Shown: piece after piece, positions 2,230-10,233 of the stretch
How the letters are laid out: each line of letters begins with the position of its first letter
Numbering within the stretch: the stretch's first letter is position 1
Sequence record: OM630585.1
Reading direction: 5' to 3' (one strand)
Source: Escherichia phage vB_EcoM_LNA6
Length of the DNA: 64,000 bases
Notes under the pieces: model-generated
Told to the model about the DNA's origin: nothing
Database searches by the model: none
The model's input: the letters and a program-made list of their open reading frames with translations, nothing else
Made by a program: the position numbers and the translations under genes

Positions 2230-2613
2230 TTAGATACCTGTGCAGCTTCTGTTTTCTAAGAAATACTCAACACCATACATAGCTTTTTGCATCAAATCTT
2301 CTTTAAACTGGATACGATGGTTGAGCATAGCCTGTACATCAATATCATCATGGTGCTTCTCTTTAATATTTGCAGATTGCAGGAAATACTCTGCAAGAAC
2401 GCGATACTGGTAGTCAGTTACCTTATCAGTCATCTCTGTCAAAGACTCTTCAGAGATTGGTTTAAGTAGCTCACCATTAGCTAGAGCAACACCTTTTACA
2501 ATCTGGCAAGTATCCTCTGGAACACCTGATAAGTCCACATTTGGAAGTTCTGTTGCATTGACTGGTAAATTCATTGCCATAACCATTGCAGCAGCTAATA
2601 AAATCTTTTTCAT
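2230..2613 (-). CDS. secreted protein with signal peptide
   Basis: N-terminal MKKILLAAAMVMAMNLPVNA hydrophobic signal followed by polar region. Confidence 0.45.
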   Translation of the reverse strand: MKKILLAAAMVMAMNLPVNATELPNVDLSGVPEDTCQIVKGVALANGELLKPISEESLTEMTDKVTDYQYRVLAEYFLQSANIKEKHHDDIDVQAMLNHRIQFKEDLMQKAMYGVEYFLENRSCTGI

Positions 2614-2639
2614 AATGACCTCAAAGTTATATTAAATTT

Positions 2640-2700
2640 TGTATTACATTGAGTATAAAAATAAGCTATAACACCTGACTTGTCAACAGATTTTATAGCT
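2640..2700. repeat. inverted repeat / hairpin (ataagctataa...ttatagcttat)
   Basis: Near-perfect palindrome arms at 2661-2671 and 2691-2701. Confidence 0.4.
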
Positions 2701-2830
2701 TATTTGGCAGATTTTTTATAAGGCTACTGCCATCCTTCCATACCTTACCTTACCACACCTAACCATACCTAACCAAACTACACCATACAATACCTTGTTA
2801 AAAGACCCTCTTAAAGACCTTTTAAAAAGG
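2700..2830. repeat. CA-rich degenerate tandem repeat tract, copy 1
   Basis: ccataccttaccttaccacacctaaccatacctaaccaaac...; almost G-free on plus strand; related tract at 3960-4230. Confidence 0.5.
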
Positions 2831-2848
2831 AGCCTCCGAAGAGGCTGC
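2815..2848 (-). terminator. intrinsic terminator
   Basis: Minus-strand ggcagcctcTTCGgaggctcc hairpin followed by T-run. Confidence 0.5.
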
Positions 2849-2857
2849 CTAGTCAAC

Positions 2858-3298
2858 TTAGAAAGGTTTTCTACGTTGCTTGTTAATGTTAGCTTTCATA
2901 GCAGCTAAATGGTTTTGCTGTTCAATTAGTCGTGAACGTTCTTGATGGCTAAGTGCCATAGTGTTCACATTCTCAATTGCTTGAGTGGCTTGCTTTAAAG
3001 CTCGACCAATCTTACCAGACATTTTACGTTTTGCAATAGTTGCTTGATGCTTAGGTTCAACCACACGATAACCAACACCCATTGAAGCAACCAGATAAAT
3101 CTTCTCTTCTTTAAGAAGCTTCTCAATAAACTTCTCAAGTCGGTTTAGACGTGTAAGCGCATAAGCCTTCATTTCATCTTCGTACTTAACAATGTCACCT
3201 TGATAAGTTGGCTTCACAATACCTAAGAAGGTGTCCATCTCAGAATGTGATACAGTGTCACCGTAACTAAACTTTGCTGCTAATGCTTTCGTATTCAT
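2858..3298 (-). CDS. hypothetical protein
   Basis: 146 aa ORF; terminator-like hairpin downstream on minus strand. Confidence 0.4.
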   Translation of the reverse strand: MNTKALAAKFSYGDTVSHSEMDTFLGIVKPTYQGDIVKYEDEMKAYALTRLNRLEKFIEKLLKEEKIYLVASMGVGYRVVEPKHQATIAKRKMSGKIGRALKQATQAIENVNTMALSHQERSRLIEQQNHLAAMKANINKQRRKPF

Positions 3299-4230: not shown

Positions 4231-4453
4231 AAGTGATGTTGGTGAGTACCCGTTGGTTTATGCTGCTCAGTATACTCACCAAATTTTCTATGTCAACAAC
4301 TTTTTATAAAAAAGTTCTGATAGCTATATGTGTCACGAAACAAAAGATTGTAAACAAGACACCCATTGCAAAAGATGTGTCCAAAAGCTTACTTGCAACG
4401 TATGACAATACAAAGACAACCAGTATAAACAGAATGACTGTACTGAACATAGT

Positions 4454-5554
4454 TTATTCATAATCCCTAATAACTAGCCCTACAGGGAACTGTAAAGACC
4501 CCTTACGAGTCATCTTCTGGAACTGAACCGTTAAAGGTTTCCCGATAAACTCTTCAGGGTGTTCAGCAAGATACTGTTTCTTCTCGTGAGTAGTCTTCCA
4601 TGAAACATCTACAAAGACGTTAGGAAGAGTCTCTACAACGAACTTACCATGACCACGCTTATCGGTCTTGACACCAGTCACTTTAAACTCTTCAGTGTGC
4701 ATCTTCTTGTGCTTAATCAAGAAGTATGAACGGTGACAACACTCATAGAAGGAGTCTTCAGAGATTGAACGGTACATTGCACCTTCAAACTTAGCTTCAA
4801 CCCACTTATCATGAGCTTCATCAAACTCTTCCCAAGAATTTACACGGATAGTCTGTACAGGAACAACTCTACAGGTATCCCCAAGCTCAACAATAGGTGA
4901 GTTATCAATAACTTCACGACGTTCAGGCCAAGATTTTGAATTGTCGCAGATATCATACCAGTAGAATTTAAGAAGGTGACGGTCTGGATTGTCAGCATTC
5001 TTAATCATAGACACAATGTCTTCTAAGTCCCAACCATGAGCATAAATCTCGCCATCAAAGTCTTCAACTTGTGGATGTAATTTAAGCAACAAAAGCAAAT
5101 CTGGGATTAGTTCTTCTGGAACGTTGTAAACAGTATTCTCACGAGAATAAGCCGTGAAACTAACTGAATCATCATCTCTTGAAATTCTACAACGAACACC
5201 ATCAAATTTTGGTTGAGCATCAGCAGGGAACTTCAGGTACTTCGCATGACTAACCTTTGCAGCATCATGAGCAAGCTGTACACCTACCTTCTCAGTATTC
5301 TGTGCAGACTCTTTTGTGTAAGCATAACCTTTACGGTCAACTTGCTTTTTATACTTAGCAGCAACTTCAAAGAGAGCTTGCTGTTCAGTGTTACGCTCAT
5401 TCTTTTTACCGATGTTTTTAGGTTCTGCTGTATACTCTTCAAACATCATCTTGCCATTTTCTTTACCGTAGGTTGTAATAACTTTGTCACCTACAGCAAC
5501 GCATGACCAGACGTTGAAGGAACCGTCTTTATTTTGTTTGTACAGAATTGTCAT
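4454..5554 (-). CDS. ATP-dependent DNA ligase
   Basis: 366 aa; KFDGVRC matches ligase adenylation motif I (KxDG); size fits T7-type ligase. Confidence 0.65.
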   Translation of the reverse strand: MTILYKQNKDGSFNVWSCVAVGDKVITTYGKENGKMMFEEYTAEPKNIGKKNERNTEQQALFEVAAKYKKQVDRKGYAYTKESAQNTEKVGVQLAHDAAKVSHAKYLKFPADAQPKFDGVRCRISRDDDSVSFTAYSRENTVYNVPEELIPDLLLLLKLHPQVEDFDGEIYAHGWDLEDIVSMIKNADNPDRHLLKFYWYDICDNSKSWPERREVIDNSPIVELGDTCRVVPVQTIRVNSWEEFDEAHDKWVEAKFEGAMYRSISEDSFYECCHRSYFLIKHKKMHTEEFKVTGVKTDKRGHGKFVVETLPNVFVDVSWKTTHEKKQYLAEHPEEFIGKPLTVQFQKMTRKGSLQFPVGLVIRDYE

Positions 5555-6671: not shown

Positions 6672-7231
6672 TCAGTGTACCTCAAGCCAATTCTTACCAA
6701 CTTTACCAGTACCAGTTACAAGCGTTTCCTCCTTAAGTCCTAAGTTTCTTGATGCCTGACCATACATCCAGTCAATCACTGCTTTAACATCTTGTGTCAT
6801 CTCTTCTGGGCACTCCCAACTATTTTCATCGTGGTATGCTAGAAGCAATCTAGCACCAATAGCTGGTTTTCGACCATTCAGCTTTGTAAGACCCTCTTCA
6901 CAAGTTCTTCTACAAGCGAGGTTGATGGCTTCATTCTGAACCTGACTTTCCGAACCCATGAGCAGATAATTCAATAGTTTGTGTGGAGATTTACACCACA
7001 ACCATGCACCAGCAACCTTTACAAAACCACCTTTAGAAATTGCAGCAGTCTTACCAAATACCTCTTCAAGAGCCTTCTTAGTGGCTTTGAAGTCAGCTTC
7101 CAAATTATCTATCAACTTTTTAATCTTAGGGAGGCGTACAAAGTAAGTTTGCTTAGTTAAAGCACCTTCTTCGGTTGTTGATGCTTTAATCGTCTTGGCA
7201 AACTTCTCATCACCTGCCCCAAACAATACAT
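6672..7231 (-). CDS. DNA polymerase (family A, T7-type), exon 2
   Basis: Begins LFGAGDEK (second half of motif B, cf. T7 YGAGDEK) and contains HDE-type motif C; in-frame stop immediately upstream shows it is not a free-standing gene. Confidence 0.65.
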
Positions 7232-8035
7232 CTGGTCAATACACTCGCAAGGTGTACCAGTTCTCTTATGAACTTCTCCGCATTTCTACGGAGTGTCGGA
7301 CTATATCACGTAGTAGTAATACTACCGTTGCACTTGGGAATGGTCATTAGCTTACCACCCTACTCTACTCAGTTCATACATTAAGTATGCTTTTCGATAG
7401 TCTCTGAACGTTTCTCTGTTAGGAACTCTAAAATACTATTGTTTACTAAGGTATGCAATTGCTCTCTGCATATTATCAACGCTATCTGCAAGCAACCCCA
7501 AAGCCCTATTGCAATTGTGGCACAACATACCTCTTACTTTTCCGGTTTTGTGGTCATGGTCAACGACAAGTTTAGCCTTATGCCGTGAACTATTCATGAT
7601 AAAACCTTCACCGCCACAAATTTGACATTTGTAATCACAGTTACGGAGTAAGGTTTCAACCTCTTCTCTTTCTAAACCATATGTTCTCAGGTAGTAATTC
7701 TTAACTCTACCTTTCTCTCCGCAATGCGAAGAACAATAAACTTGCCTTGCTGTTCTAGGCATGAACACCTTCTCACAGCTAGGACATTTCTTAGTAAGAA
7801 CCCTATGTTCTGCTCTTCTGTCAAATTTTAATACGCAACTTCTGCACCGTTTTTGATTGTATTGGTATGGTTTAAACTCTGCACCACACTCAGTACACAA
7901 TCTCTCTTTGTAACCTGCCATTGTCTCTCCCCTTTGCTTTAGGAGTCCTAACAGAGACTTCGCTGCTGATTACCATATCTTTACAGACTTAGGCTTCCAG
8001 CAATTCACAACGTTTTACATGCGCCACTGACGCAT
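7232..8035 (-). other. putative group I intron in DNA polymerase gene (boundaries inferred)
   Basis: Polymerase reading frame is broken inside motif B; one junction obeying exon-U / intron-terminal-G rules gives ...KNGIY|VLFGAGDEK; contains HNH ORF. Confidence 0.45.
7436..7921 (-). CDS. HNH endonuclease (intron-encoded)
   Basis: 161 aa; multiple CxxC pairs plus DHDHKTG...HNCN HNH motif; lies between polymerase fragments. Confidence 0.75.
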   Translation of the reverse strand: MAGYKERLCTECGAEFKPYQYNQKRCRSCVLKFDRRAEHRVLTKKCPSCEKVFMPRTARQVYCSSHCGEKGRVKNYYLRTYGLEREEVETLLRNCDYKCQICGGEGFIMNSSRHKAKLVVDHDHKTGKVRGMLCHNCNRALGLLADSVDNMQRAIAYLSKQ

Positions 8036-10172
8036 AAATGCCATTCTTGGCTTTCTTACGACCCTTACTAATTTCTTGAAGAAGGTTTGTATCCTGAGTA
8101 GCTCGACAAGTCAAGATATCTTCCTCTTTATTAAGGCTGAAGTAGATGCTATTTAAAGTATGCGCATCAGTTCCTGAGTACACCACGTACAAGTCATTTT
8201 CAGAATCATAATGCAAATACTTGTCAATCTCTGGGTTTAGATACTGGTCAAAATGTTTGCAATAGTATCTGCCATCCTCTTGTTTGACAAACTCAACTTC
8301 TTCTTTACCCTCTGTCACTGCTTTGGTGAACTCTTTATCACCCATAAAGTTACACAGCAGTACAAGTTGCGCGCTATTCATATCTGCTGAAACAATATTA
8401 GTTCCTTCTTCACAAGTCCACACCTCCCTCATAGGTGCTCCATAGACAGCAGCACCAGACGGTACGTTTACAATACCATATTGTGTCATACGTCCAGTTG
8501 AAGTGCCAAACACCATTGCACCAGCACTAAGGCGACCATCAGGACGAATCTGGTTCAACCAACCTTTTTCATCATCCTTTGAGTTCTCAATAGTTCTGCG
8601 TCGGTGCATCAAAGTATAGTACTTAGCAATCTTCTGTCCAAGCTCACCTTCAATCGTATCATAAGATGATTCAGTAAGTTTTGGTGAAGTACGGATTAAG
8701 CAAGGTTCAAGCAAATCTGTGTATTTCTTCACAGACCAGTTATGCTCAATATACTGTACACCTTCGTGCTCAACATAGCTCAAACCACACCGCTCAACCA
8801 TTTCCTGCCACTTAGGATGTTTTGTAATCATCTTTTTATTGTCTTTGAAACGACAAACTTTGACAGGGCGACCATCTGAGTCTTTCTTGTAGTTCCAGTC
8901 ATCTGGAATCCAACCAACTGATTTCAAGTAGTCTTTAACAACTGCTACCTGAGTCATACGAGAAACTTCAAACTCAATTGGTGTATACGGTGCATCAATC
9001 AAACCTGTGTAGCGACTTGACTCAAGTTCAAAGTGGTTAACAACGTGACTGTTATAGTACTTCACAGTTTTGACTGTTTTTACTGGCTTCCAGTCTTTGC
9101 ATTTCTTACCAATCTTTGCATTCAACTCATTGCAAATTTCACGAGCATCCTTCATTGCTACAAAACCCTCCTTGTACTCTTCACCAGTTACAGAGTTGGT
9201 TGGTGTATAGCAATTTCTCTTTTCAATGTTAAAAATCTTTGTAGTTGGCTTACCAAATGGCTTGATTTCATATGTCTGCATCTCACCATTACGTACCTGC
9301 TGACGATACTTTGTCTTAGGGTACTTGGTAATCCTCTTCAGTCCATCTGCATGACCAAATGTTTCAACATACTCATTCCAAGCCCTTGCAAACTCTTCTC
9401 CAGTGACTTTACCTTTGGTCTTAATAGTTGGAGGAAGATGTGGTTCAACCTCTGAAGCAAGCTCATTAGTCAACTTGTCAAGTTCCTTTACATGGAACTC
9501 CATAAGCTCTTTATCAGCTTTCCAACCATTGATAGCTTGCTGGCTCATCCAGAAAGATGTCTCTTTAGCTCGCATGTAGGTTTCATAAGTGTCTATGCCA
9601 CACTTCTTAAGCTTGAGATACTCGTTATCAAGTGCCCGTTTAGTTTTGGTGTTAATACGGATATCTTCTACAACACGAGTGAAGATTTCTGCATTCCACA
9701 CACCCCAATGTTCAATCTCTGGTTTACGAACACCGACACGAGCACCCCATGCAGCCAAACCATGAGCACCTTTATAACCCCTTGGAGTTGGTCTATCCAT
9801 CCACTGAACACGAGACTGAATAAGAGAATCCTGAAAGAAATTACTCCACGGCTTACACTTTGGATTATCAAAGTTCCATAAATCAGGTGCAATGTGATTG
9901 AAAACCCACCAGTCATAACCGAGACCGTTATGGATGCAAAGACGTTTTGCCTTTAACGCAAACTCAACACCTTCACGTAAACCACCCTTAATGTACTTGG
10001 TATACTTGTGACCGAGGATAGGCTCATCTGTGAAGACCCATACAGGTGGCTCTTCATCGTCAGATTTATAGTCTGCAAAAGCCATTACGTGAACTTTAGT
10101 GAACTCAAGGAGTAAACCATCAGTCTCTGTATCACCAACCAAATGTAAGTTTTTAAAATCTATGTTTTCCAT
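8036..10172 (-). CDS. DNA polymerase (family A, T7-type), exon 1
   Basis: N-terminal DTETDG 3'-5' exonuclease motif; HGLAAWGARVG and NGLGYD resemble T7 gp5; tail KAKNGIY is first half of motif B; 3' boundary inferred. Confidence 0.7.
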
Positions 10173-10233
10173 TTTTTACTCCCTCTAAAACCATTAACCC
10201 CATACATTACTGCAAAAAATTATAAAAAGCAAG

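Follow-up and report, generated by a model that had tools for sequence, protein, structure and literature searches.

The sole DNA polymerase gene of Felixounavirus is very probably interrupted, in the phage described here, by a mobile group I intron of IA2-like type. Escherichia phage vB_EcoM_LNA6 (OM630585.1) is a Felix O1-like myophage of this genus, for which a single DNA polymerase is reported (PMC3185647), and all features of the interrupted locus lie on the minus strand of the 64,000-nt stretch that was analysed, hereafter the window. The gene encodes a family A (T7/Pol I-type) polymerase, and its motif B is broken by an 801-nt insert (8029..7229, minus strand). The architecture of the ribozyme, the exact restoration of the gene, the family of the enclosed nuclease and the polymorphism of the element, both in presence and in decay, are read from the sequences, from which we infer self-splicing, the activity and target of the nuclease, and homing. 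An earlier note on this DNA had described a family A polymerase interrupted inside motif B by an endonuclease-bearing, intron-like element, a reading now borne out by a complete group I core and by the exact restoration of the gene on removal of the insert. The intron is real but an ordinary mobile element, already noted in sister phages.

The interrupted polymerase gene and its junction

The upstream polymerase ORF (10172..7989) starts with an ATG at 10172, just 3' of the Shine-Dalgarno sequence GAGGGAG. Its homology to polymerases ends with ...RKKAKNGIYA and is followed by 13 extra codons that belong to the insert (SVAHVKRCELLEA), then by TAA (7991..7989). The downstream ORF (7226..6672) begins with (L)FGAGDEK, and the frame remains free of stops as far back as 7235, which gives PDV-LFGAGDEK. 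According to the ORF list, the sequence itself and collinearity with phages wV8 and Felix O1, exon 1 (10172..8030) comprises codons 1-714 and the first base of Leu715, and exon 2 (7228..6672) runs from bases 2-3 of Leu715 to the stop codon. The break of the frame after ...RKKAKNGIY(A) and its resumption about 800 nt downstream had thus been rightly located by the earlier note, the insert measuring 801 nt.

Removal of 8029..7229 gives a protein of 899 aa that aligns without a gap over its whole length to the intronless polymerases of wV8 (95.0% identity) and Felix O1 (91.9%), which is the comparison with intronless homologs that had been proposed as a check. This collinearity also confirms that the two parts together reconstitute motif B. 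The joined polymerase scores 59.2 bits against Pfam DNA_pol_A (cut-off 34.3), the best stretch (residues 680-896) spanning junction residue 715, whereas the unjoined fragments, at 18.7 and 27.3 bits, fail to reach this cut-off. Among the PDB sequence matches are Taq Pol I and T7 gp5, the latter with query residues 168-360 against T7 residues 511-695. The spliced protein has the features of a family A DNA polymerase, motif B (R..K...Y/F-G) included, and its motif B or O-helix reads RKKAKNGIYALLFGAGDEK.

The boundaries of the intron were set by comparison with the intronless homologs, together with the rules of a U·G pair at the 5' splice site and of a terminal G. The join ...TAT GCG T|TA TTG... 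falls within a Leu codon (U|UA) and yields KNGIYALLFGAGDEK, which the spliced polymerase of the window shares with the polymerases of wV8 and Felix O1; across the junction these two intronless polymerases have KAKNGIYALLFGAGDEK, and their site is ATCTATGCACTGCTGTTCGGTGCAGG. At the RNA level, GCGU|...AUG|UAUUG satisfies both the terminal-U and the terminal-G rule and gives KNGIYA-L-LFGAGDEK, with a predicted ligated-exon sequence of ...ATTTATGCGT|TATTGTTTGGG. The junction KNGIY|VLFGAGDEK, which had been thought to combine an exon-terminal U with an intron-terminal G, does not exist, and the real junction adds one residue. Indeed, a product IY|VLFG would be one residue short compared with every intronless homolog and cannot be obtained with both rules together: for a TAT|GTA cut the intron would have to end in T, and for a TATG|TA cut the exon would have to end in G.

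The ribozyme and the endonuclease that it carries

The intron (8029..7229; 5' CAGUGG, 3' CCAGAUG) has no P2, and helices P1, P3 to P9.2, P7.1, P7.2 and P10 can all be drawn with standard pairs. The 5' ribozyme segment (8029..7938), in which all helices were checked as valid pairs, holds the P10 guide CAGUG (8029..8025), the 3' strand of P1 or internal guide GCGCAU (8024..8019), the 5' strand of P3 (8012..8007), P4-P5-P5a with a GUAA tetraloop (8002..7964), P6, and the 5' strand of P6a (7957..7943). The 5' strand of P1, AUGCGU, consists of the last six bases of exon 1 (8035..8030), the last exon base U8030 standing opposite G8024 in the expected U·G pair, and P1 and P3 are only 6 nt apart. The 3' ribozyme segment (7428..7229), similarly formed of valid pairs and with covariation in 32 distinct related introns, holds the 3' strand of P6a (7428..7413), the 5' strand of P7 (GACUA, 7402..7398), P7.1 (7389..7375), P7.2 (7360..7337) directly preceded by GUA, the 3' strand of P3 (7331..7326), P8 (7325..7310), J8/7 with the 3' strand of P7 (GAUAUAGUC, 7307..7299), P9 (7293..7276), P9.1 (7273..7260) and P9.2 (7259..7233). 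The intron ends with G7229, and a P10 of 5 bp is possible between CAGUG and the start of exon 2, UAUUG (7228..7224). Introns of subgroup IA2 have P7.1 and P7.2 between P7 and P3', commonly lack P2 and carry an ORF in P6a (PMC3428280); here, both helices are present and the ORF lies between the P6a strands.

At Rfam gathering thresholds the window returned tRNAs only. A permissive search with RF00028 (threshold 50 bits) gave two partial matches of 28.1 and 15.4 bits in the window copy, covering the signatures of P4-P6 and of J6/7-P7...J8/7-P7'-P9; the intron stays below the gathering score because a 486-nt ORF in P6a splits the model. The ORF-less alleles of the same intron exceed the threshold, with 59.2 bits in REP5 (268 nt) and 63.3 bits in warpig (311 nt), and the ribozyme core of warpig is 99.5-100% identical to that of the window, so that the catalytic core P3-P8 is recognized through these alleles. 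The structure search that had been suggested for the insert therefore succeeds, with P1 and P3-P10 drawn. Folding of an ORF-less allele by free energy recovered most helices overall, P3, P4, P5 and P5a independently. A covariance model built from the proposed structure scores the two halves of the window intron at 227.9 and 83.8 bits and finds more than 100 related introns among viral contigs. Over 32 distinct full-length related phage introns, 95.2% of cells are paired, versus 34-43% with slid partners, and both sides change in 61 of the 72 pairs, although these counts lean towards the structure, the alignment having been fitted to its own model. Compensatory changes are thus present; for the nearly invariant P7 a single sequence carries the test, and in P8 a compensatory C-G to U-A swap is seen inside the genus Felixounavirus.

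The predicted homing endonuclease gene (7921..7436, 161 aa plus stop) sits in the P6a loop, with its own ATG and TAG and a Shine-Dalgarno sequence GGGGAG (7932..7927). The earlier note was right about a separate gene with its own start and stop, but its assignment to the HNH type did not hold. The protein matches Pfam Endonuclease_7 (PF02945) with 69.3 bits (E = 2.7e-19, cut-off 23.6) and PHROG 307 'endonuclease VII' (E = 7e-42), and Hpy99I and T4 endonuclease VII are among its PDB sequence matches. No Pfam HNH family of the classical PF01844 type was found at E ≤ 0.01, the only other Pfam matches beside Endonuclease_7 being weak zinc-ribbon ones. The DHHRN motif is defined as CxxC ... D-H-x-H ... 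R ... CxxC-N and is related to classical HNH at the level of the ββα-metal superfamily only (Fang et al. 2018, PMC6083498). The C-terminal half of the protein displays it entirely (C99/C102, D121-H122-D123-H124, R130, C134/C137, N138), and further CxxC pairs occur in the N-terminal half, at residues 9, 26 and 46. Judged by these matches, the predicted enzyme is a member of the 'DHHRN' (Endonuclease VII-motif) branch of ββα-metal nucleases and not to the classical HNH family; it is therefore HNH-like at the superfamily level only. Between alleles, dN/dS is 0.03-0.06, and the gene is under strong purifying selection.

Occlusion of the nuclease Shine-Dalgarno sequence was also considered: GGGGAGAGAC pairs with GUCUCU of the P6a 5' strand in the local minimum-energy fold, but the stability does not exceed that of shuffled sequences (z = -0.31). 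Similarly, a scan of the locus for promoters and terminators gave nothing beyond the shuffled expectation.

In the mechanism that we propose, the polymerase gene would be transcribed into a single pre-mRNA, in which the intron RNA would fold into the P1-P10 ribozyme and excise itself with a guanosine cofactor. Ligation of the exons (...UAU GCG U and UA UUG UUU...) would yield a single family A polymerase of 899 aa in which motif B is uninterrupted, whereas unspliced RNA could give only a truncated protein because the frame of exon 1 meets UAA 13 codons into the intron. The 161-aa endonuclease of the P6a loop would be translated independently and would serve homing, cutting or nicking intronless polymerase alleles near the insertion site in mixed infections, and repair off an intron-bearing genome would copy the intron into the cut allele. 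Over its first ~45 nt, exon 2 of the window hardly differs from that of phage VSe11, and a cut on the exon 2 side is therefore predicted.

Distribution in the genus and alternative explanations

Among 259 Felixounavirus records, the intron is present in about 96 and the nuclease gene in about 42, the others being intronless. The genus displays a series of decay, from an intact nuclease gene to a frameshifted one (VpaE1), a deleted gene, a minimal intron and no intron. At the insertion site, all 16 intron-plus alleles examined read GCGT|TATTG, while intronless alleles mostly read GCAC.TGCTG or GCCC.TGTTA. The ribozyme cores of the window and VSe11 are 100% identical, whereas their flanking exons are 76-84% identical; within the genus, the core can be 100% identical while the enclosed nuclease cassette has diverged to synonymous saturation. 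The presence/absence polymorphism and a core far more alike than the flanking exons lend indirect support to the proposed cleavage of intronless alleles and to homing. The nucleases of JH2, EC6 and FSL SP-010 have been listed as intron-encoded (Fang et al. 2018, PMC6083498), and the announcement of Salmonella phage Meda noted an ORF-less intron in the polymerase gene (PMC6486253). In the literature searched, no experimental work on the intron of Felix O1-like phages was found. No introns were reported in the original Felix O1 genome paper, consistent with Felix O1 being an intronless allele.

The insert had been left by the earlier note as either an intron or a split gene, and of these we retain the group I intron, on account of its core and of the restored gene, with splicing as the expected consequence. 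The other reading is an endonuclease cassette that splits the gene without RNA splicing, the fragments of 727 and 184 aa being translated separately and assembling into an active enzyme. Such arrangements exist: in some T4-related phages, a homing endonuclease gene inserted in gene 43 divides it. For most deposited genomes, gene callers indeed deliver two 'DNA polymerase' CDS and one for 'endonuclease VII', and TTG at 7226 is a formal candidate for the start of the second ORF, but no Shine-Dalgarno sequence occurs within 20 nt 5' of this codon. The break interrupts the O-helix of motif B midway, separating Ala from Leu in IYA|LLFG, a place where non-covalent reassembly seems implausible. Moreover, about 315 nt of the insert are highly conserved non-coding sequence carrying the full group I core, the bases of P1 and P10 are always kept in intron-plus exons, and a cassette fails to explain why an insert devoid of any ORF persists in many phages as a 268-nt form. 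We consider a split gene very unlikely.

A protein-level splicing element such as an intein is still far less credible, being already refuted by the reading frames. Insertion in a highly conserved catalytic motif is typical for inteins and introns alike, but the frame of exon 1 runs into a stop after 13 codons of the insert, the nuclease is encoded by an ORF with a Shine-Dalgarno sequence, a start and a stop of its own, and about 205 nt, with stops in the exon 2 frame, separate this ORF from exon 2. Pfam reveals no Hint or intein domain, and the element does not qualify as an intein, as the earlier note had already held from the separate nuclease gene with its own start and stop. Hardly more probable is an artefact, of assembly or of sequencing (that note had named a sequencing frameshift as a possible cause of the break), or a dead pseudogene: only the interruption itself speaks for these, and the recurrence of the same architecture in about 96 of the 259 records, among them dozens of independently isolated, viable lytic phages, refutes the artefact. 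In addition, no polymerase besides this one is reported for the genus (PMC3185647), and strong constraint acts on the ribozyme core as well as on the nuclease gene.

The mobile group I intron calls for one joined CDS (10172..8030 and 7228..6672) to be annotated, together with the intron as a feature of its own and the homing endonuclease gene; deposited annotations often contain, in addition, a spurious antisense ORF within the ribozyme. Felixounavirus phages are widely used candidates for biocontrol or therapy against Salmonella and E. coli. The intron and its co-converted flanks amount to local mosaicism, and the region should therefore be left out of phylogenies. The genus would offer another clear case of a homing cycle with all stages (invasion, nuclease decay, intron loss) caught together, and the nuclease is an uncharacterised, presumably site-specific enzyme of the Endonuclease VII-motif family. 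Current understanding is unchanged by any of these points.

Motif B insertions and related systems

Group I introns occupy four staggered positions within 17 nt of motif B in four unrelated phage lineages, at codons 524 (T7-like Berlin), 526 (LUZ24), 528 (Felixounavirus) and 530 (Bas89) in T7 numbering or its equivalent. Related nucleases of the Endonuclease VII type are encoded in three of these introns, but the ribozymes are not each other's closest relatives; among those compared, the closest to the Felixounavirus core is an intron in an RNA polymerase gene of an N4-like phage. Staggered sites, related nucleases, ribozymes whose nearest relatives lie elsewhere and saturated nuclease divergence together suggest that nuclease and ribozyme may be independently mobile. 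That motif B is a repeatedly colonised hotspot, where a nuclease lineage tracks its polymerase target and moves between ribozymes, is a tentative idea that we hold to be somewhat less probable than its opposite; if true, the element would offer a natural setting in which to test the Bonocora-Shub model of mobile intron formation.

The other Felixounavirus introns (JH2, EC6, FSL SP-010, Meda) lie in the same gene and at the same insertion site as in the window, with 94-100% identity in the ribozyme core, 80-100% in the nuclease and no essential difference. Escherichia phage LinBro is especially close, its locus being 97.9% and its nuclease 100% identical.

The polymerase intron of Yersinia phage Berlin type shares with the window an IA2-like ribozyme without P2, the J8/7-P7' GAUAUAGUC and P9.1 GUUCAUAAGAGAAC motifs, and an ORF starting in P6a, which unlike that of the window extends into P7. 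Its nuclease is 44% identical to that of the window overall, and 51% over residues 44-159, but lacks the extra N-terminal CxxC...CxxC unit. The Berlin-type intron is also inserted in motif B of a family A polymerase, though 11 nt upstream of the Felixounavirus site, after base 2 of the T7 F524 codon (AKTF|IYGFLYGAG), and it resides in a podophage belonging to another family. It is probably of the PhiI/W31 type, reportedly described by Bonocora and Shub in 2004. PhiI/W31 introns have been placed at E. coli Pol I position 881 (PMC3428280), with which the position of the Berlin-type intron at motif B (about 760) is not reconciled.

Pseudomonas phage LUZ24 has a polymerase intron with gp35, an 'endonuclease VII' (Ceyssens et al. 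2008, as cited in PMC6083498). Like that of the window, it is a group I intron in motif B with U·G at the 5' splice site and a terminal G, and its nuclease is 47% identical; its insertion, at a junction deduced here, lies 6 nt upstream, in a Tyr codon (AKTFI-Y-AFIYGAG).

The introns of SPO1, SP82, Bastille and cyanophage Pf-WMP3, which encode I-HmuI, I-HmuII, I-BasI and I-PfoP3I, are likewise group I introns at a conserved motif of phage family A polymerase genes with a ββα-metal nuclease gene in a peripheral loop, but their insertion site differs, corresponding to position 674 of E. coli Pol I (PMC3428280). They encode nicking enzymes of the classical HNH family, whereas the nuclease of the window has the Endonuclease VII motif, and their splicing and nicking are demonstrated, whereas the window element is known from its sequence. 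Finally, F-CphI of cyanophage S-PM2, the founder of the 'DHHRN' homing endonuclease family (PMC6083498), shares with the window nuclease the catalytic motif CxxC...DHxH...R...CxxC-N, C-terminal in both; F-CphI is free-standing and adjoins a psbA intron, whereas the nuclease of the window is intron-internal.

Layout of the locus and restoration of the polymerase

All three open reading frames of the locus lie on the minus strand. The upstream polymerase ORF (727 aa, 10172..7989) has a conserved part ending in ...GRKKAKNGIYA, followed by 13 codons and a TAA; the middle ORF (161 aa, 7921..7436) has GGGGAG seven bases 5' of its ATG; and the downstream polymerase ORF (184 aa, 7226..6672) starts with (L)FGAGDEK. 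The outer ORFs match Pfam DNA_pol_A weakly (at 18.7 and 27.3 bits they fall short of the 34.3 cut-off) and the middle one matches Endonuclease_7 strongly (PF02945, 69.3 bits, E = 2.7e-19), so that both layout and Pfam assignments agree with the interrupted polymerase described in the earlier note, an account that was accurate. The locus is 97.9% identical to that of Escherichia phage LinBro and 84-96% identical to those of many other Felixounavirus genomes (Felix O1-like myophages); in GenBank records it appears as two 'DNA polymerase' CDS and an 'endonuclease VII'. A cluster of 24 tRNAs (58323..63552, plus strand), typical of Felix O1-like phages, fits this genus.

The polymerases of Felix O1 and wV8 are uninterrupted (906 aa) and read KAKNGIYALLFGAGDEK at the break site. 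The sole join in the window that reproduces this sequence links ...ATT TAT GCG T (exon 1 end, 8030) to TA TTG TTT GGG... (exon 2 start, 7228), and the insert is therefore 8029..7229, minus strand, with 801 nt starting with CAGUGG and finishing with CCAGAUG. Its removal, in the comparison with intronless homologs that had been proposed, gives an 899-aa product that aligns without gaps to the polymerases of wV8 (95.0%) and Felix O1 (91.9%), passes the DNA_pol_A cut-off (59.2 bits) with a match crossing the junction, and has PDB sequence matches including Taq Pol I and T7 polymerase (T7 residues 511-695). The break falls in the O-helix of motif B (aligned with T7 K522-TFIYGFLYG), the splice point lying after base 1 of the codon equivalent to T7 F528. 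The junction first suggested, IY|VLFG, has to be corrected, being one residue short of the intronless Felix O1 and wV8 sequence; moreover, it cannot combine an exon ending in U with an intron ending in G.

Two further observations concern the ends of the polymerase gene. Within 10172..10194 (minus strand), a run of six A lies just 5' of its ATG at 10172; through it an upstream ATG (10194) is no longer in frame, and an in-frame TAA arises at 10178..10176. Annotations of wV8, Felix O1 and LinBro start the polymerase at the upstream ATG, adding 7 residues; a Shine-Dalgarno sequence, GAGGGAG, favours the downstream ATG as the start in these three phages and in the window. At the 3' end, a free-standing HNH endonuclease gene directly follows or overlaps the polymerase in Felix O1, Si3, REP5, warpig and VSe11 (relatives with the gene downstream of exon 2: L002, L004, L005, L006, L008) and is absent from the window and LinBro; the polymerase locus thus has a second polymorphism of a mobile nuclease, independent of the first.

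A group I ribozyme core

A permissive search of the window with Rfam RF00028 yielded two pieces, one covering P4-P6 (28.1 bits, E = 8e-5) and the other J6/7-P7 'GUUCAGAGACUA', J8/7-P7' 'GAUAUAGUC' and P9 (15.4 bits). The gathering-threshold scan of the window did not detect the intron because the ORF splits the model; ORF-less forms of the same intron in the sister phages REP5 (268 nt) and warpig (311 nt) reach 59.2 and 63.3 bits, respectively (threshold 50). The full secondary structure, written out with every pair checked as standard, comprises P1 (AUGCGU|...GCGCAU, the splice-site U pairing with G), P3, P4, P5, P5a with its GNRA loop, P6, P6a with the ORF in its loop (a 15-bp stem closes P6a in the window), P7, P7.1, P7.2, P8, P9, P9.1, P9.2 and the terminal G, as well as a P10 of 5 bp, in which UAUUG of exon 2 pairs with CAGUG. 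Among the P1-P9 helices of the structure search that had been advised, only P2 is absent. An unguided free-energy fold of an ORF-less allele recovers P3, P4, P5, P5a, P7.1, P7.2, P8, P9 and P9.1. The RF00028 matches, the ORF-less alleles above threshold and the complete drawn core bear out the intron reading, and on its sequence we assign the insert to the group I introns. In LinBro, JLBYU28 and other deposits, a small antisense 'hypothetical protein' is annotated inside the 3' ribozyme domain (about 7240..7360 in the window, plus strand; 4366..4482 in record L001); this annotation almost certainly does not represent a real gene.

More than 120 viral contigs of IMG/VR contain the motif GATATAGTC...GTTCATAAGAGAAC. 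A covariance model, R1, was built from five ORF-less Felixounavirus alleles and the structure above, and retrieved 130 matches from 100 sources. The 34 top-scoring full-length matches comprise 32 distinct sequences. In their alignment, which was fitted to R1 itself, standard pairs fill 95.2% of pair cells, sliding the 3' partners by 1-3 columns lowers this to 34-43%, and 61 of the 72 pairs show changes on both sides; none of the observed covariation measures was reached by the shuffles (0/500). P7 is nearly invariant, its sole variant (GACCA/UGGUC) being compensatory. Within the genus, a C-G pair of P8 becomes U-A (GUAGCA/UGCUAC and GUAGUA/UACUAC) and the P5a loop remains GNRA.

The endonuclease, mobility and alternative readings

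The 161-aa protein carries a complete Endonuclease VII motif in its C-terminal half (C99xxC, D121-H-D-H124, R130, C134xxC-N138), aligns with PDB entries for the restriction enzyme Hpy99I and for T4 endonuclease VII, and falls in the PHROGs category 'endonuclease VII'; three further CxxC pairs in the N-terminal half are presumably zinc-ribbon DNA-binding units. By its motif it is a 'DHHRN' homing endonuclease, a family defined by Fang et al. (2018; PMC6083498) that is related to HNH enzymes at the ββα-metal level and has no central Asn. The earlier note had thus recognized an endonuclease, as PF02945 confirms, but its HNH label does not hold beyond that relationship, no Pfam HNH profile matching the protein. 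Between alleles dN/dS is 0.03-0.06, and the protein is therefore maintained by selection.

About 96 of the 259 phage records matching the polymerase have the ribozyme core, the others being intronless, and 42 encode the nuclease at ≥60% identity; duplicate RefSeq/GenBank entries are contained in all these counts. All stages of a homing cycle are represented among phages: introns of 801-805 nt with an intact nuclease gene, a 780-nt intron with a frameshifted one in Escherichia phage vB_EcoM-VpaE1 (L164), a 311-nt form deleted for the gene with the long P6a stem kept, a minimal 268-nt intron, and no intron. The VpaE1 ORF has a deletion of ~21 nt and a frameshift beside an intact ribozyme; it is a decaying homing endonuclease gene that the record still names 'endonuclease VII'. 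The bases GCGT|TATTG, required for P1 and P10, are kept in 16/16 intron-plus alleles examined, whereas most of the 26 intronless alleles examined (wV8, Felix O1, viral contigs) encode the same amino acids with GCAC.TGCTG or GCCC.TGTTA. Between phages the flanking gene is much less similar than the ribozyme core: the window and Salmonella phage VSe11 share 100% identity in the core, 84% in exon 1 and 76% in exon 2.

Since the interrupted gene is the only polymerase of many cultured, viable lytic phages (PMC3185647), some process must restore the polymerase; of the candidates, RNA splicing has by far the strongest support. A polymerase made as two separate polypeptides fails to explain the conserved non-coding ribozyme and the ORF-less alleles; moreover, exon 2 has no preceding ribosome-binding site and the break would fall in mid-helix. 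An intein is excluded by the reading frames, as had been argued from the outset, and a sequencing or assembly artefact by the recurrence of the interruption in independent genomes. Ribozyme architecture, exact gene restoration, nuclease family and constraint, and polymorphism can be read from the DNA itself; going by what is established for group I introns and homing endonucleases, splicing by the pre-mRNA would be autocatalytic and guanosine-initiated, and the nuclease would be translated from its own ribosome-binding site. During co-infection it would cut or nick intronless alleles near the insertion site, and recombinational repair would then copy the intron.

The finding is real, correctly interpreted and already known at the bioinformatic level. 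The proteins of JH2, EC6 and FSL SP-010, which carry the same element (89-94% identity over the locus), were explicitly called 'intron-encoded' (Fang et al., 2018; PMC6083498), and the announcement of the Meda genome notes that the polymerase gene holds an intron lacking an ORF (PMC6486253). That the original Felix O1 genome paper reported no introns (PMC3185647) is explained by the intronless allele of this phage. Literature searches turned up no experiments on the splicing or homing of this intron.

Related introns in motif B

Outside the genus, the nearest relatives of the nuclease are encoded in polymerase introns of T7-like Yersinia phages (51% identity over residues 44-159, 44% overall) and Pseudomonas phage LUZ24 (47%), the Yersinia intron sharing 98.8-98.9% identity with the introns of Berlin and YpP-G. 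In four unrelated phage lineages, group I introns interrupt the motif B coding sequence of Pol A at staggered positions that all fall within 17 nt: the Berlin type at AKTF|IYG, codon 524 after base 2 (2318..2987 in the Yersinia phage L007), LUZ24 inside Tyr526 (about 11113..11829 in L131), Felixounavirus at the codon equivalent to 528, and Bas89 inside the Tyr equivalent to 530 (about 2459..3238 in L010), the junctions outside Felixounavirus being deduced from the U/G rules and the T7 motif. Two IMG/VR contigs likewise break after AKTFI, L013 and L089 are further entries of this set, and introns of three of the four lineages encode related Endonuclease VII-type nucleases.

The nuclease and the ribozyme have different closest relatives. 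The Felixounavirus nuclease has its nearest relatives in the Berlin and LUZ24 introns, while the ribozyme is closer, by rough pairwise alignment, to an ORF-less, unannotated group I intron of ~257 nt lying between two 'RNA polymerase' CDS in the N4-like Escherichia phage vB_EcoP-ZQ2 (486..753 in L009). This intron scores 114.6 bits with R1, is 84% identical in the 3' domain and, among the introns compared, is the closest ribozyme relative outside the genus. The intron itself (7229..8029) is a mosaic relative to VSe11 (L008) and EC6 (L160): its ribozyme halves are identical (100% to VSe11 over the first 91 nt and the last ~236 nt of the intron, covering the ribozyme core and the last ~35 nt of the ORF), whereas the nuclease cassette has only ~75% identity to VSe11/EC6 with saturated synonymous sites (pS 0.71, dS about 2.2), which points to recombination parting the two histories. 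Staggered sites, discordance and mosaic together hint at plausibly separate histories of nuclease and ribozyme, which fits published models.

The introns of the T7-like phages PhiI and W31 were placed at E. coli Pol I position 881 (PMC3428280), against about position 760 for the Berlin-type intron in motif B; the two are either distinct introns or numbered differently in that study. With the T7-like and cyanophage introns described there, the Felixounavirus intron shares P7.1 and P7.2, the lack of P2 and an ORF in P6a, the hallmarks of subgroup IA2 (PMC3428280).
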